A DNA stretch of 64,000 bases from Candidatus Amesbacteria bacterium GW2011_GWB1_47_19. Its GTDB lineage: Bacteria > Patescibacteriota > Microgenomatia > CAZETR01 > Amesbacteraceae. A program made the translations under genes and the position numbers. The notes under the pieces are model-generated. The model had not been told where the DNA came from. It saw nothing but the letters and a program-made list of their open reading frames with translations, and made no database searches. Position 1 is the first letter of the stretch. Each line of letters begins with the position of its first letter. Shown one piece after another: positions 27,682-31,214 of the stretch. The DNA is taken from assembly GCA_001002325.1 (NCBI GenBank), contig LCNZ01000006.1, positions 110,492-174,491 on the forward strand, written 5' to 3'.

Positions 27682-27755
27682 TGGGGGATCGTCTAACGGT
27701 AGGACGACAGACTCTGAATCTGTTAATTGGGGTTCGAATCCCTGTCCCCCAGCCA
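27682..27755 (+). tRNA. tRNA-Gln (anticodon CUG), CCA encoded
   Basis: Hand-folded: acceptor TGGGGGA/TCCCCCA, D-arm GTCT..GGAC, anticodon stem ACAGA/TCTGT with loop CTCTGAA, T-arm TGGGG-TTCGAAT-CCCTG, discriminator G, CCA. It resembles E. coli tRNA-Gln. Confidence 0.85.
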
Positions 27756-29246
27756 GTAAGGAGAAGAAAGAGGTTGGGAGGTAGCGCTTTCCGCGCCCCC
27801 GCCTTGCCGGCAGGCAGGCGCCTCCGCAGAAAGCGCGTCAAATCCGCCTTTTTTGAAACTTGCGGACAGCCGCCGATCCTTTAAAAAGAAGTTCGAGCCG
27901 ACAGTTTTTGCCATGATAGATAAATCATGGCAACTATTTTTTGCGCGCGCGATTTTGTGCGCTGAAAGCGCACTATTTAACTCAGCGCCGTTTTGGGAAA
28001 CTTCCTTGATTTTGGAGTTGAGAAGCGATTTTGTTTCGATAAGTTCGTTCTTTTTCTTTTGATAATCTTCGGGGCTAACAATTTTGTCTAAATATCCCTC
28101 GAGCAAACGATCTGTTTTTTCCTCTGTTTCTTTTAGTTGCAGTTGATAAGTTGAAATAATACCGGACGATTTCCCTTTTTCGCTGTTTGCGTCTTTATCC
28201 GCCCACTCGAGAAACTTTTTGGCGGCGTGCGGCGGCAATGATGCTCGCAAAACAATCTCTTTTAGTTGTTTTTCAATTTCCCCTTTATCAATATATTTTT
28301 GCGAGCAATTACCCATTTTCTTGGAGCAGCGATAGTAAATATATTCAGCGGTTCTATTGGTTCGGTTATAATACTTGGTATGTTTTTCCGCCGTAATTGC
28401 GCCGCCGCATTCGCCGCACTTCACCAAACCGAGAAAATCAAATAAGTGTTTATTGTTTTTAACTTTTCTTGTTTTTAATTTCACTATATCTTGACATTTA
28501 TCAAAAAGTTTCTTTGAGATTAAAGGCGGGTGATTGCCTTCGTAAAGTTCGCCGCAAAATTTCATCACTCCGTAGTAAAACGGATCGGTCAAAATTCTTT
28601 TGACTTTATCCAAATGAAGTTCATGGCCGGACTTGTTGAAAATTTTGTTTTGGTTGAAAAATTTGCGGATATCAGCATATCCATAGCCGCCGGTAGCAAA
28701 AAGCTGAAAAGCTTTTTGCACATACTTGGCTCGTTTTTTATCAACCTCTATTTTCTTATTAATATTTATATAACCAAACTGAGCTTGATTTGGCCACTCA
28801 CCGCGGCGAAGTTTTTGACGATTGCCTCGCTTTACATTTTCGGAAAGATTATCCACATAATACTTTGATTGTCCAAACGCGATATTGAGCATAAATTTTC
28901 CTTGGGGGGTGTTTTCAAACCAGAATGAGGGAAATTTTAGATCAAGCAATTTTCCGGTATCTAATAAATAGATAATCTTTCCGCCGTCAACAGAGTTTCT
29001 GGCTAAACGGTCTGGATGCCATGATAAAATTCCATCAGCTTTTCCGTCCTCAATTTCTTTTAGGACTTCTGCAAATTTTTCTCTGCCTGGTTCTTTGGCG
29101 GTTTTACTCTCGGTAATAAAAGAAACGATCTTTAATCCTTCTTTTGCGGCGTGTTCTTCAAGTTCGGCAACTTGAGCCTCAATGGACAAAATTTGTCTGT
29201 CCGGTTCATCCGTAGATTTTCTGCAATACGCTATATATTTAATCAT
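27723..29246 (-). CDS. Large serine recombinase (resolvase domain, recombinase domain, zinc ribbon)
   Basis: N-terminal catalytic motif YCRKSTDEPDRQILSIEAQ, a recombinase domain and a CX2C...C zinc ribbon (KCGECGGAIT...YYRCS). The last ~50 codons (approx. 27723-27872) read through IR X' and into the tRNA, so the true C-terminus is probably shorter. Confidence 0.85.
   Translation of the reverse strand: MIKYIAYCRKSTDEPDRQILSIEAQVAELEEHAAKEGLKIVSFITESKTAKEPGREKFAEVLKEIEDGKADGILSWHPDRLARNSVDGGKIIYLLDTGKLLDLKFPSFWFENTPQGKFMLNIAFGQSKYYVDNLSENVKRGNRQKLRRGEWPNQAQFGYININKKIEVDKKRAKYVQKAFQLFATGGYGYADIRKFFNQNKIFNKSGHELHLDKVKRILTDPFYYGVMKFCGELYEGNHPPLISKKLFDKCQDIVKLKTRKVKNNKHLFDFLGLVKCGECGGAITAEKHTKYYNRTNRTAEYIYYRCSKKMGNCSQKYIDKGEIEKQLKEIVLRASLPPHAAKKFLEWADKDANSEKGKSSGIISTYQLQLKETEEKTDRLLEGYLDKIVSPEDYQKKKNELIETKSLLNSKIKEVSQNGAELNSALSAHKIARAKNSCHDLSIMAKTVGSNFFLKDRRLSASFKKGGFDALSAEAPACRQGGGAESATSQPLSSPYWLGDRDSNPN
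27749..27870. repeat. Inverted repeat X' (left copy, reverse complement of X)
   Basis: Its reverse complement matches 29349-29470 with a single mismatch over about 122 bp. It is GC-rich and begins with CCAGCCA, which also forms the tRNA-Gln 3' end. Confidence 0.85.
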
Positions 29247-29348
29247 GGTTGCTTTATCTCTTAAAAGTTCTTTAAACGAACGATAGTGAGCAGTCCCGAT
29301 TATTCATCGGGACAATTTTTGCGTTTTTTCTTCCTTCTTTTTACGGCG

Positions 29349-29470
29349 GCTGTCCGCAAGTTTCAAAAAAGGCGGATTTGACGCGCTTTCTGCGGAGGCG
29401 CCTGCCTGCCGGCAAGGCAGGGGCGCGGAAAGCGCTACCTCCCAACCTCTTTCTTCTCCTTACTGGCTGG
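29349..29470. repeat. Inverted repeat X (right copy)
   Basis: See the X' entry. The ORF 29378..29728 inside it is a spurious frame. Confidence 0.85.
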
Positions 29471-29563
29471 CGGTTTACGAAAAATGTCGAACTTCATTTG
29501 ATTAGCTCGGCCTTCGGCCTCGCTTGCTCCAGCGCGGCGCCCCCACCCGCCGCGCCTACGAAA
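29466..29563. repeat. Inverted repeat Y (left copy)
   Basis: It is a perfect reverse complement of 30829-30926 over about 98 bp. It overlaps X by the 5-bp GCTGG core. Confidence 0.85.
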
Positions 29564-29813
29564 CTGTCGGCTCGAACAAGACAAAATACAAGAGTATTTT
29601 GTCTCAAAGAAAAACGCAAAAATTTTAAAGAACTTTTTATAAATCTCAAATGGCCGCCCTGGTTGTACTCAGAAACCTTTCGGGATCTGTCCAAGACGGC
29701 CATTAAAAAGCCCGAAGGTTATTTCTGAGTACAAATACAATATACAAATTTTCTCAAAGAAAAACGATAGCGCCTACTCAAATTTCCTGAAACCTGTATA
29801 ATTAAGGTGAAAT

Positions 29814-30416
29814 ATGACAATAAAAGAACAATTACATAACGACCCAGAAATTCTAGACGACATCGACCTAGTTCGTTGGATTGCTGAAAATTTGCCGATA
29901 CGATTTATAGGTGATGAGGGACTAAAGCAGAAATGCACAGTGTTTAGCGAAGATGAGTTTGGAAGAGAAGAAATGATGGAACTAAGCGAGGTTCTTATTG
30001 ATACTCTTAAGAAATATCGAGCAAAAGCTGGTATGGGAAGAGGTCTAGCGGCCAATCAAATAGGTATTCCCAGACGAATGATTGCTGTTTGGTTAGGTGA
30101 TGAACCGGAAGTATTTGTTAACCCAGAAATTGATAGTACAGAAGGCAAGGGAAGTTATTGGGAATCTTGTATATCAGCAGGAACTTTACTAATCGGGGAA
30201 GTAATTCGTCCATGGAAAGGAAGGTTTTCATATCGTGATCTAAGTGGTGGAGTACACACAATCGAAGCAGACGAAAAACAAACAAGGCTTTTTCTCCATG
30301 AGATTGATCACTTGGATGGACATAATTGTTTGGAAGCATATACACCGGGTACTACAAAATTTGTCCGAGGAGGGAAAGAAGAAATTTTTAGTCACTCGTT
30401 CACCAGAACGAAATAA
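29814..30416 (+). CDS. def: Peptide deformylase with an N-terminal extension
   Basis: All three PDF motifs are present: GRGLAANQIG (motif I), WESCIS (EGCLS-type, motif II) and HEIDHLDG (HExxH, motif III). It has a TATAAT box and RBS upstream. Motif I sits about 30 aa later than in housekeeping PDFs. Confidence 0.85.
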   Translation: MTIKEQLHNDPEILDDIDLVRWIAENLPIRFIGDEGLKQKCTVFSEDEFGREEMMELSEVLIDTLKKYRAKAGMGRGLAANQIGIPRRMIAVWLGDEPEVFVNPEIDSTEGKGSYWESCISAGTLLIGEVIRPWKGRFSYRDLSGGVHTIEADEKQTRLFLHEIDHLDGHNCLEAYTPGTTKFVRGGKEEIFSHSFTRTK

Positions 30417-30438
30417 AATTCTCTAAAAACCAAACGAT

Positions 30439-30780
30439 ATGAAAAAAGCAGAATTAGAACAAGTAAAAGAATTTAAGAACAGCGATTCATGTGTTGCGTT
30501 AGAGTACCCATTGGACGATAAGGATATAAATGCCGCTGTTATTAAGTTAGACGGTCGTTATCCTGAAAGAGGTAGAGCAGTTAATACCGATTGTAAAGAA
30601 ATGGGTTATGTTATCGAGGGATCTGGAAAATTAGTTATTGAAGATAAAACAGTTGAACTAAAAAAAGGCGATGTAGTTTTGATTGAGGCTGGAGAAAAAT
30701 ATTACTTGGAAGGAAACCTGATAATGTTCGTGCCATGTACGCCAGCATGGACTCCAGAACAGCATAAGCTCGTCCCATAA
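30439..30780 (+). CDS. Cupin-domain protein
   Basis: 113 aa with a conserved cupin-2 barrel signature (GDVVLIEAGEKYYLEGN). Confidence 0.65.
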   Translation: MKKAELEQVKEFKNSDSCVALEYPLDDKDINAAVIKLDGRYPERGRAVNTDCKEMGYVIEGSGKLVIEDKTVELKKGDVVLIEAGEKYYLEGNLIMFVPCTPAWTPEQHKLVP

Positions 30781-30828
30781 AATATTTAAATGGCTTGTGA
30801 AGCAAGCCAAAAATCGCGCGCCAAAAAA

Positions 30829-30926
30829 TAGCGGAGGCGCGGCGGGTGGGGGCGCCGCGCTGGAGCAAGCGAGGCCGAAGGCCGAGCTAATCAAATGAAG
30901 TTCGACATTTTTCGTAAACCGCCAGC
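30829..30926. repeat. Inverted repeat Y' (right copy)
   Basis: See the Y entry. It ends with CCAGC, immediately followed by ATGAAG. Confidence 0.85.
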
Positions 30927-31214
30927 ATGAAGAATTTATATACATTGTGGATGATTCCGCCCCCAGAAATTAAAAAAGTTCTGGAGGATGTTATTCGTGA
31001 GTTGGGTGACAAATACAAAGGTCCTTATTTTGAGCCTCACATGAGCCTTATATATGGCGATCACCAGATGAAATTGAGAGAAAAAATTGCTTCAGAAGTA
31101 AAATTGCCCGCGAATTTATCTTTTAAGGTGAAGAAACTAGTTGTTACCCCTTGCACCAATGACCCGAAAGACTGGATACATCTAGCTGAAATCAATTTAG
31201 CTTTTGGGTCCTAG
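30927..31214 (+). CDS. Hypothetical protein, possibly an N-terminal fragment of a 2H phosphoesterase (LigT-like)
   Basis: One H-x-S-x motif (PHMSLIY) at about the position of the first 2H motif. A second motif is not evident and the protein is short. Confidence 0.3.
   Translation: MKNLYTLWMIPPPEIKKVLEDVIRELGDKYKGPYFEPHMSLIYGDHQMKLREKIASEVKLPANLSFKVKKLVVTPCTNDPKDWIHLAEINLAFGS

Follow-up and report, generated by a model that had tools for sequence, protein, structure and literature searches.

Serine integrases are prized as tools for genome engineering. In an attP half-site of these enzymes the distal motif lies further out than in attB, and inverted serine-recombinase sites permit inversion only, not excision, unless the crossover dinucleotide is palindromic. 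The invertases Hin, Gin, and Pin are small enzymes with sites of about 26 bp and a Fis enhancer, and IS607-type elements lack terminal repeats and encode a small serine transposase whose DNA-binding domain is N-terminal. In Tn3 and gamma-delta the serine-recombinase site (res) lies between two divergent genes, and in the yeast 2-micron circle two unique segments are split by inverted repeats with a recombination site, FLP being a tyrosine recombinase. We know of no obvious conjugative systems in CPR bacteria. According to a survey from 2020 (PMC7192596), tRNA genes were not among the known targets of serine integrases. Tycheposons are cargo-carrying elements of streamlined genomes; they insert at tRNA genes, next to which their integrase lies, and they accumulate in tandem and in tRNA-proximal islands with degraded integrases (bioRxiv 10.1101/2020.12.28.424599). 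Tyrosine recombinases are found in 910 of 937 tycheposons, many have replication genes, and they show direct partial-tRNA repeats, with attachment sites of typically ~40 nt (Hackl et al., bioRxiv 10.1101/2020.12.28.424599).

Here, we describe a segment of ~3.2 kb (27754-30926) within a window of 64,000 nt, the window being the whole stretch of DNA that was analyzed. The segment probably represents one integrated copy of a Patescibacteria family of cargo-carrying large serine recombinase (LSR) elements that target tRNA genes and contain an internal inverted attP (Table 1). Two inverted-repeat pairs, an LSR gene, and a deformylase/cupin cargo had been recognized in the initial annotation; all were recovered by computation, at coordinates within a few bases of those annotated.

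Table 1. Features of the element and its target tRNA gene, in window coordinates.
Feature	Positions	Strand	Basis
tRNA-Gln(CUG), proposed integration target	27682-27755	+	ARAGORN; Rfam RF00005, 60.4 bits
LSR ORF, 507 aa	27723-29246	-	ORF listing, Pfam, homolog tails, allele comparison
Core copy 1, CCAGC (tRNA nt 70-74); attL-type junction tRNA/X'	27749-27753	+	Three-junction comparison, sequence
X' arm (whole repeat 27746-27875)	27754-27875		Repeat search, blastn, ORF, alignment with L009 and L010
Z', LSR codons K-T-V-G-S-N; + strand GTTCGAGCC; partner 29561-29577	27891-27907		Repeat search, 17/17
W', LSR codons K-I-A-R-A-K-N-S; inverted partner W abuts Y'	27934-27956		blastn, 22/23
V', LSR upstream region (5' UTR or promoter pieces plus hairpin)	29256-29328		Repeat search; conserved in L009 and L010
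X arm, inverted partner of X'	29344-29465		Repeat search
Core copy 2, GCTGG on + strand; centre of complete inverted attP-like site X/Y	29466-29470	-	Three-junction comparison
Y arm; pseudo T-loop TCGAAC at 29487-29492, 27 nt to core end	29471-29560		Repeat search, spacing
Z, sense-oriented copy of LSR K-T-V-G-S-N codons, just past Y	29561-29577		Repeat search
V, inverted copies of V' facing cargo; left edge of cargo slot	29610-29644		Repeat search, L009/L010 comparison
Peptide deformylase homologue (cargo)	29814-30416	+	Pfam PF01327, 8e-28
Small cupin protein (cargo)	30439-30780	+	Pfam PF07883 (Cupin_2), 8e-9
W, copy of LSR K-I-A-R-A-K-N-S codons; right edge of cargo slot	30810-30831		blastn, comparison with L009
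Y' arm; pseudo T-loop GTTCGA at 30900-30905, 27 nt to core end	30832-30921		Repeat search, three-junction and allele comparison
Core copy 3, CCAGC directly before ATGAAG; attR-type junction Y'/flank	30922-30926	+	Three-junction comparison

The repeat search delimits an X'/X inverted repeat of 130 nt (27746-27875 and 29344-29473, 98% complementary) and a Y/Y' inverted repeat of 95 nt (29466-29560 and 30832-30926, 99% complementary). Blastn within the window recovers both pairs (6e-67 for X, 2e-48 for Y) and detects no extra copies of either repeat in the whole 64 kb. X overlaps Y by GCTGG, and the annotated presence of CCAGC at all three junctions was borne out by their comparison. The element centre, CGTAAACCGCCAGC/CAGTAAGGAG, equals after reverse complementation the end of Y' joined exactly to the start of X', so that the annotated identity between a Y'-X' joint and an inverted copy of XY is exact. 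The tRNA-Gln gene is called as intact by both ARAGORN and Rfam, and its T-loop GTTCGAA (27732-27738) lies 22 nt from the core end; an intact tRNA gene with the crossover sequence CCAGC directly repeated at both element ends is what characterizes an integrated island. This 5-bp core is the only direct repeat at the ends. A classical TIR or composite transposon is rejected, the outer ends X' and Y' being unrelated and each pairing with an internal copy. The X' arm supplies the CA-3' end of tRNA-Gln, encodes the last ~43 LSR codons on the minus strand, and has a conserved palindromic stem whose tip varies in the alignment with the related loci L009 and L010. Short backbone pieces (Z, W, and V) are common to the LSR and cargo modules and follow the same cyclic order in both.

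The LSR ORF crosses X' and the attL-type junction and continues into the tRNA gene. Pfam identifies Resolvase (PF00239, 6e-22, residues 5-151), Recombinase (PF07508, 4e-15), and Zn_ribbon_recom (PF13408, 8e-11) domains, the nucleophile S11 lies in a YCRKST motif that is nearly invariant in an alignment of 31 sequences, and among solved full-length chains YokA comes closest (9dxh, E = 1e-8). Its domains mark the enzyme as a phage-type large serine integrase of the standard kind. An IS607-type serine transposon is rejected on domain order, the catalytic domain coming first and the LSR C-terminal domains thereafter. No recombination directionality factor is evident within the 3.2-kb element. Compared to the 515-aa alleles of sibling strains, the allele in the window lacks the eight residues WLEPFQEF through a 24-nt in-frame deletion and is probably defective, and another locus (L001) has a frameshift. 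Because of this deletion, this frameshift, and the presence of the element in all same-species contigs, the element may be fixed and decaying in the source species.

Relatives of this LSR are encoded in at least 591 of the 600 candidate stretches listed (GTDB species representatives). For comparison, 81 loci with related LSRs (43-88% identity, mostly Patescibacteria) were used, among which the X pair is present in 67 and both pairs in 37, most of the others being cut by contig ends; the repeats measure 75-330 bp across the family. The initial annotation had proposed to look elsewhere for the same repeats and for this recombinase beside tRNA-Gln. The repeats are conserved with this family of recombinases, and a convergent tRNA gene lies at the LSR 3' end in 57 of the 81 loci, with 14 isotypes represented. 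Several elements can occur per genome, and tandem arrays were also seen. The family is large, widespread in Patescibacteria (CPR), and apparently undescribed. In three loci (L020, L023, and L061) the element is followed on its far side by the next tRNA gene in a cluster of such genes. Locus L228 is a tandem array of the order tRNA-Ser/X'b..Y'b/X'a.., in which a complete second element, internal inverted site included, lies between tRNA-Ser and the older element, and the core CCGC is common to all four junctions. This array shows the entire segment from X' to Y' to be the unit of insertion.

An empty tRNA-Gln site, a check that the initial annotation had suggested, was not found, and every same-species contig examined carries the element. 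The exact sequence of the predicted attB had 0 matches in metagenome contigs, matches to the 3' half of tRNA-Gln all came from unrelated taxa and contained no empty site, and none was found via the nearest Prx relatives, which lack synteny or are at most 68% identical. An excised circular form was not found in the same searches either. The earlier proposal of an integrated ~3.2-kb circle is thus upheld for the segment inserting as a whole, as in L228, and not for the circle. Insertion itself is indirectly supported by the L228 array and by the insertions between adjacent tRNAs. As a side observation, a low-GC island runs from tRNA-Gln to ~38 kb in the window and holds another LSR fragment.

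Among the 36 other loci with both repeat pairs, 28 share a core of 2-9 bp between all three junctions at the tRNA acceptor end, the same logic as the integrated recombinase element with a crossover in CCAGC that had been annotated here. No palindromic dinucleotide occurs in family cores such as TCACC, CC, CAACA, and CCACCA. In 19 of 22 measurable loci, the distance to the core is 4-5 nt greater for the GTTCGA of the Y arm than for the tRNA T-loop (27 versus 22 nt in the window), and a P-versus-B register shift of this kind is reportedly seen in the 2013 structure work of Rutherford et al. on LI integrase with attP. Motifs are conserved in both the Y and the X arms across loci, and the B' flank has no conserved motif among the compared loci. 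The att logic appears to match that of phage-type serine integrases, leaving only the architecture of the element unusual. The earlier view of a match neither to IS607-like elements nor to phage-type integrases holds for this architecture and fails for the enzyme, a phage-type integrase by domains and att register. The P arm, Y', seems to imitate tRNA T-arm DNA (GTTCGA plus a T-run), and only one attB half appears to be read by the enzyme.

T-loop mimics also occur within the LSR gene. The G-S-N motif is encoded by GGC-TCG-AAC in 35 of the 37 loci in which it was located (TCG-AAC in 36), where codon usage predicts GGC-TCG-AAC at 2.2%, and GGNTCGAA followed by C or G is found in 74 of 79 LSR genes; at the DNA level the mimic in Z' is fixed. 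The GGCTCGAAC(C) mimics at the W-L-E-P and G-S-N motifs lie about ten helical turns apart. In a bolder and rather doubtful reading (see below), they would serve as additional binding sites for the recombinase, through which the attP copy beside the LSR 3' end would become the active one.

Backbones of the window and L009 are 84.6% identical, with 97.5% identity in Y' plus W, and their cargo regions (29636-30809 in the window) are unrelated. The edges of the cargo slot fall at V and W, not at the Y/Y' arms themselves, and cargo is swapped in this defined slot, which conserved pieces of backbone flank. In 36 loci, 111 cargo ORFs matched 106 different Pfam families, including restriction-modification systems, regulators, and metabolic genes.

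Inversion isomers of the LSR module exist within the source species (L004 and L093) and in another species (L060). In the only dated inversion, a diagnostic SNP within the arm, ~47 nt away from the core, has kept its position; the crossover thus occurred inside the repeat and not at the core, and therefore the inversion does not demonstrate LSR action on the internal site. The flipped form has a private SNP common to two samples and is hence a heritable variant. Across loci the orientation of the LSR module is biased 57:1, which speaks against integration via either attP copy, since that would make both orientations common. In each of the 12 other loci in which a Z-type short repeat was detected (11 genome-contig loci and L228), the Z copy adjoins the central Y arm. 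An 18-nt insertion specific to the window is present in both X arms and has no counterpart in close homologues; the repeats seem to evolve in concert.

[quoted passage not shown] The left junction (tRNA/X') would be attL, the right junction (Y'/flank) attR, and the centre X/Y a complete second copy of attP (Y'/X') in inverted orientation. The outward displacement of the Y' T-arm mimic by 4-5 bp would be the register expected for attP versus attB half-sites, and the right attB half would not be read, so that an unrelated flank, or a resident element's X' arm, could serve equally. Because the internal attP is inverted, the LSR and cargo modules are each bracketed by ~100-bp repeats, and recombination inside these would occasionally flip a module. 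A circle with two inverted attP copies would be released by attL x attR excision, and the copy at the LSR 3' end would be the one used for integration. The weakest step concerns the internal copy, which separates the divergently oriented LSR and cargo genes and may be a recombinase-binding regulatory or resolution site comparable to Tn3 res. To our knowledge, the canonical LSR rules predict no need for a second attP, and this counts against the explanation. A bolder form of it, a CPR-wide class finding any tRNA via the T-loop with a register-shifted T-arm-mimic attP, a recoded LSR gene, and a res-like internal attP, is rather doubtful.

The initial annotation had also considered two independent TIR-bounded units side by side, an autonomous X'-LSR-X and a non-autonomous Y-cargo-Y', each moving alone. 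We regard this as unlikely, although its modular aspect survives in the exchange of cargo in a defined slot: each module has its own bracketing inverted repeat, Z, W, and V pieces are found in both, and elements with the same backbone have wholly different cargo. However, the slot edges lie inside the Y arms, at every locus compared the two pairs of repeats run into each other at a single short, asymmetric core, inverted sites with the non-palindromic family cores cannot excise, the unit inserted in L228 is the whole X'..Y', and solo units were not seen in a search that was not systematic. A fixed, host-domesticated inversion switch beside tRNA genes, flipping one or both segments to regulate neighbours without being mobile, would accommodate the missing empty site, the two orientations of the LSR segment in natural populations, and the heritable flipped form with its private SNP in two samples. 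It is nevertheless somewhat less probable still, as 14 tRNA isotypes are targeted, several elements occur per genome, tandem arrays exist, close relatives carry unrelated cargo, orientation is biased for both the LSR module (57:1) and Z beside the central Y arm (12/12), and the observed crossover lies inside the repeat, off the shared core. A switch of the Hin/Gin type was rejected on the 507-515-aa LSR and on the diagnostic SNP that puts the crossover inside the arm. The phage-type domains of the LSR and the low-GC island with its LSR fragment would suit the remnant of an ordinary prophage or integrative island that has standard attL and attR sites and whose inverted repeats are incidental duplications or assembly artefacts. 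This reading is highly improbable and already contradicted by the family comparison: dozens of independent assemblies show the double-repeat architecture again, among them a 'chromosome: 1' record (L009) and, with the X pair only, a 'complete genome' record (L068), the element contains no phage genes, and IMG/VR holds only 6 relatives, all at contig ends.

The family, with at least hundreds of members, appears to recognize the T-loop, the most conserved DNA word, on one side of the target only, and its tRNA specificity changes across 14 isotypes. The movement of gene cargo in CPR bacteria gains a concrete picture from this family. If true, an enzyme needing one attB half and a few core bases would be a possible naturally re-targetable integrase. 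A mechanistic puzzle is posed by the retention of a second inverted attP in every copy and by the T-loop mimics recoded inside the recombinase gene.

Our verdict is that the element is a new variant among tRNA-integrating LSR elements. With the phage-type LSRs (A118/LI Int, Bxb1, phiC31, and SPbeta SprA/YokA) it shares the Resolvase/Recombinase/zinc ribbon set, a short core, and a P half-site motif 4-5 bp further out than that of B. In contrast to these, the target is a tRNA 3' end of which apparently only one attB half is read, a second complete inverted attP is kept in the integrated element, the LSR ORF extends past attL into the tRNA gene, and no directionality factor is evident. A resemblance to tycheposons is seen in the tandem array of L228 and in the window's low-GC island that contains an LSR fragment, but not in the LSR enzyme, the core of 2-9 bp, or the internal inverted att site; membership of the tycheposons is ruled out by the enzyme and by the direct repeat of only 5 bp. 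As in Hin, Gin, and Pin, the recombinase gene lies inside an inverted-repeat segment found in both orientations in nature, but this gene encodes an LSR, repeat lengths range from 75 to 330 bp, orientation is strongly biased, and the mapped crossover lies inside the repeat. The likeness to Tn3 res and to the 2-micron circle would be one of geometry only, the element here having neither a transposase nor a replication gene.

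The element that follows tRNA-Gln(CUG) consists of two inverted-repeat pairs, X'/X around a recombinase gene and Y/Y' around a peptide deformylase homologue and a cupin (see the table). Both pairs and the CCAGC core at three junctions, as described in the initial annotation, were reproduced by repeat search, by blastn and in the sequence itself; blastn inside the window gave E = 6e-67 for X'/X and E = 2e-48 for Y/Y', and no further copies of either pair elsewhere in the 64 kb. The three domains of the 507-aa ORF identify it as a large serine recombinase (LSR). When reverse-complemented, the centre of the element is the exact join of the end of Y' to the start of X'. 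Short pieces of the LSR gene or of its upstream region (Z', W', V') have inverted partners on the cargo side (Z, W, V), and in tRNA sense the parts are ordered core-X'-Z'-hairpin-W'-LSR-V'-X-core'-Y-Z-hairpin-V-[cargo]-W-Y'-core. The placement of Z recurs in 11 further loci from the genome-contig set (detail from locus L057) and in locus L228. A simple duplication or inversion history yielding this order was sought and none could be derived; likewise, for an origin of the repeats by ssDNA fold-back, hairpin or inverted dimer, no arrangement gave the observed order of the arms.

Features of the tRNA-Gln element (window coordinates)
Feature	Position	Strand	Remarks
tRNA-Gln(CUG)	27682-27755		
Inverted-repeat pair X'/X	27746-27875 / 29344-29473		130 nt, 98% complementary
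Inverted-repeat pair Y/Y'	29466-29560 / 30832-30926		95 nt, 99% complementary
LSR ORF, 507 aa	27723-29246	-	Resolvase, Recombinase, Zn_ribbon_recom domains; inside first repeat pair
Core CCAGC, tRNA side	27749-27753		tRNA nt 70-74
Core complement GCTGG, centre	29466-29470		
Core CCAGC, right end	30922-30926		
G-S-N copy of fixed word	27891-27899		
Z	29561-29577		inverted copy of LSR codons KTVGSN
V	29610-29644		inverted copy of LSR upstream region; bounds cargo slot
W	30810-30831		inverted copy of LSR codons KIARAKNS; bounds cargo slot

Homologues of the LSR number in the thousands, and at least 591 relatives were found when each GTDB species was scanned in one representative genome. The closest homologues (85-92% identity) span the full length of the protein including the tail encoded by X'. 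Their C-terminal tails end, for example, in ..YWL-xx-DSN.., the translated reverse complement of a tRNA T-arm, and the whole LSR group therefore lies tail-to-tail with tRNA genes. In a set of 81 loci, made up of the window and 80 retrieved loci (LSR identity 43-88%, nearly all from Patescibacteria MAGs), a convergent tRNA was present at the 3' end of the LSR gene in 57, representing 14 isotypes (Gln 15, Ser 8, Leu 7, Lys 5, Glu 5, Arg 4, Pro 3, Asn 3, Trp 2, and Tyr, Val, Gly, Ile and Ala 1 each). The inverted repeat flanks the LSR gene on both sides in 67 of the 81 loci; in 37 there is also a second repeat pair, which starts 2-9 bp into the first and encloses 0.7-7.2 kb of cargo. Most loci without the full repeat set are broken off at contig ends, and contig ends fall exactly at X or Y arms in L006, L007, L008, L094-L097 and many of L009-L088. 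The repeats are a systematic cause of breaks in short-read assemblies, and the family is therefore probably under-represented and mis-bounded in MAGs.

Backbone and cargo differ in conservation, as seen in a related element (L009) at tRNA-Gln(UUG) of a different organism. Its backbone is 84.6% identical to that of the window (29635..27679) and its Y' arm with W 97.5% identical (30926..30810), while the cargo region (29636-30809) shows no similarity to it. The near-identical stretch (window 30810-30926, L009 5440-5557) is non-coding, and the whole ~100-nt Y' arm, beyond the ~27-nt half-site, seems on this comparison to be constrained or recently exchanged. From 36 loci, 111 cargo ORFs matched 106 different Pfam families, including HTH regulators, LexA-like proteins, methyltransferases, type I/II restriction-modification, SNF2, radical SAM and enolase.

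Each locus has three junctions, here denoted T (tRNA|core|X), C (Y|core|X) and F (Y|core|flank), and their common core makes T attL, F attR and C a complete attP in inverted orientation. The core is 2-9 bp long and comprises the end of the acceptor stem, the discriminator and CCA (e.g., GCACCA, CCACCA, CCGC, TCACC); from the shortest cores, CC (L012) and GC (L023), the crossover maps to about tRNA positions 71-72. Beside the core there is a conserved 'GAAAT..GTTCGAA-TTTTT' block in the Y arm, a copy of the tRNA T-loop word, and in the X arm GGAAAT occurs ~10 nt away from the core; no conservation was found in the far flank across the family loci compared. In 19 of 22 measurable loci the GTTCGA of the Y arm lies 4-5 nt farther from the core than the true T-loop (27 nt vs. 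22 nt in the window), a shift which we take to be the attP-vs-attB half-site register of the LI/A118 integrase. An RNA explanation of the arms was rejected: they gave no Rfam match even at E = 10 and fold no better than shuffled sequence (z -0.6 to -1.9), so that what is mimicked is the DNA sequence. Promoter and terminator scans did not exceed shuffled expectation. At one further locus (L226, 9990-10050) an X' arm adjoins non-tRNA sequence, with GTTCGAA at the P-type distance of 27 nt from a CCAGC core; this sequence has no partner elsewhere in that contig, and the junction may be an array relic or an insertion into a pseudo-site.

The T-loop word also recurs within the LSR gene. In LSR genes of L009-L088 the motifs W-L-E-P and G-S-N are both encoded by a fixed word, GGCTCGAAC(C), although the codons are free to vary, and the two copies are spaced 102-105 nt, the G-S-N copy marking the inner edge of the X arm. 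Where the conserved K-x-V-G-S-N motif was located (37 loci), its G-S-N codons are GGC-TCG-AAC in 35 and include TCG-AAC in 36; GGNTCGAA[CG] is found in 74 of 79 LSR genes, with 2.2% predicted for GGC-TCG-AAC by codon usage. W-L-E-P is encoded as TGG-CTC-GAA-CCN in 54 of 56 genes, Leu being CTC in 54/54 (expected 17%) and the third base of Pro varying freely. The fixed codons at both motifs point to a DNA-level constraint within the coding region, and the most economical idea is that the two words are candidate extra recombinase-binding sites.

What moves as a unit is best seen in a tandem array (L228), which reads, in tRNA sense, tRNA-Ser | X'b-LSR2-Xb|Yb-cargo-Y'b | X'a-LSR1-Xa|Ya, with the core CCGC common to all four junctions. 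Between the tRNA and element a sits the whole of element b, internal inverted site included; it follows that the X'..Y' segment inserts as a single whole, that a resident attL can act again as attB and that the right half of attB goes unread. The array thus supports the main reading of the initial annotation, namely the whole segment as one integrated element, and together with the asymmetric core it argues against the alternative proposed there, two abutting and independently mobile TIR-bounded units. Since a serine recombinase acting between inverted copies of an asymmetric core can only invert, only inversion is expected between T and C, which makes that alternative awkward on chemical grounds too; several cores of the family lack a palindromic dinucleotide. 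Insertion as such has good, indirect support from this array, from loci within tRNA clusters where the following tRNA itself forms the far flank (L020, L023, L061) and from several genomes with two elements at different tRNAs. In L038 (4480-5773) the X' arm of one element adjoins a truncated LSR coding fragment and a second, diverged X'-like copy lies beside tRNA-Leu, which looks like a nested or partly deleted array.

An empty tRNA-Gln site, which the initial annotation had looked to in related genomes, was found in none of the metagenome, tRNA-half and peroxiredoxin (Prx) searches. The exact predicted attB (tRNA 3' end followed by ATGAAG...) had 0 matches in metagenome contigs; the 3' half of tRNA-Gln with no X' after it had 120, and all 80 inspected were from unrelated organisms without the Prx neighbour. 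A search for a sister species via the adjacent peroxiredoxin gave a sole close homologue (93%), on a 1.4-kb contig without an upstream tRNA-Gln, the remaining homologues being at most 69% identical. The element is present in every contig of the window species. This species occurs in the samples of the runs behind ERZ27254729, ERZ27254746 and ERZ27254847, JGI 3300025117 and 3300025121, and SRR1658343. As for a free form, viral contigs held only six relatives, each at a contig end, and none of the short contigs with 'Y-type' LSR tails had the terminal overlap of a circle, one being a tandem array.

Inversion of the LSR module was observed in two independent assemblies of the window species, one showing the tRNA-side junction of the flipped form (L004) and the other the Y-side junction (L093), and in another species (L060). 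About 9 of 109 homologue tails continue into an arm of the Y type, a pattern that a flip, a tandem array or a circle can each produce. Flipping by the LSR at the common core, as the source of the inversion, is rejected by a SNP in the arms: a single position, 27800, distinguishes the two X arms, every unflipped contig having C in the tRNA-side arm and T in the Y-side arm, and in flipped contigs each arm retains its local allele, so that the SNP does not travel with the inverted segment. The crossover must therefore lie between ~47 nt inside the arm, counted from the core, and the inner end of the arm, a range compatible with homologous recombination inside the repeat or with a site in the inner part of the arm. 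A private SNP common to L004 and L093 makes the flipped form a heritable strain variant. The orientation of the module is strongly biased (57:1), and the Z copy lies beside the central Y arm in 12/12 other loci with a detected Z-type short repeat; flipping is thus occasional and is probably not what the repeats are for. Concerted evolution of the arms is seen in a species-specific 18-nt hairpin insertion carried by both X arms; close relatives have other sequences at that tip. In the X arms of the window (27778-27840, 29380-29440), L009 and L010 a 12-bp palindromic stem, GCGCTTTCCGCG ... CGCGGAAAGCGC, is conserved, while its tip is wholly different (an 18-nt GC hairpin in the window, a different hairpin in L009 and none in L010). 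The low-complexity Ala/Ser/Glu tail of the LSR is a mere translation of this palindrome.

The LSR is intact, at 515 aa, in most sibling strains, as in L003 at 1645-3192. The window allele has an in-frame 24-nt deletion (~27980) and is without W-L-E-P-F-Q-E-F, a nearly invariant block with one of the two T-loop mimics (TGGCTCGAACC), and in a second strain (L001, GCA_000998545.1) the allele is frameshifted and has lost a further 22 nt. Judged from these alleles, the element in this species looks fixed and starting to decay. The GC content of the window falls from ~0.50 to 0.35-0.40 exactly at tRNA-Gln, stays low for ~10 kb (28000-38000) and is 0.41-0.46 to ~54 kb. The low-GC stretch, which has the look of an older island built up at this tRNA-Gln, contains a GH10 glycosidase, two EamA transporters and a Zn-ribbon-only fragment of a different LSR (32555-33010, - strand), the last differing by strain (151 aa vs. 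84 aa). A 95-aa ORF (30927-31214, + strand), the ATG of which directly follows the right-hand core, covers the 2H cyclic phosphodiesterase profile (PF07823, 1e-6) only in part and is probably a shortened remnant. Some 400 nt past the element, 31327-31358 weakly resembles inner X' (27823-27854) in direct orientation (72% over 32 nt), a similarity that may be left over from an older element or may be due to chance.

With respect to known systems, a Hin-type switch, an IS607 element and a TIR transposon were each rejected as the identity of the window element. Its enzyme is a member of the serine integrases, which were not known to target tRNA genes in a 2020 survey (PMC7192596). No description of this family of tRNA-targeting LSR elements was found in the literature, an absence that is no proof; three features of this family are rated as new, namely the mimicry in the att sites, the inverted attP inside the element and the recoded motifs. 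The element works like tRNA-integrating islands and resembles the tycheposons in lifestyle, but it is missing both the tyrosine recombinase and the long partial-tRNA direct repeats that define the latter.
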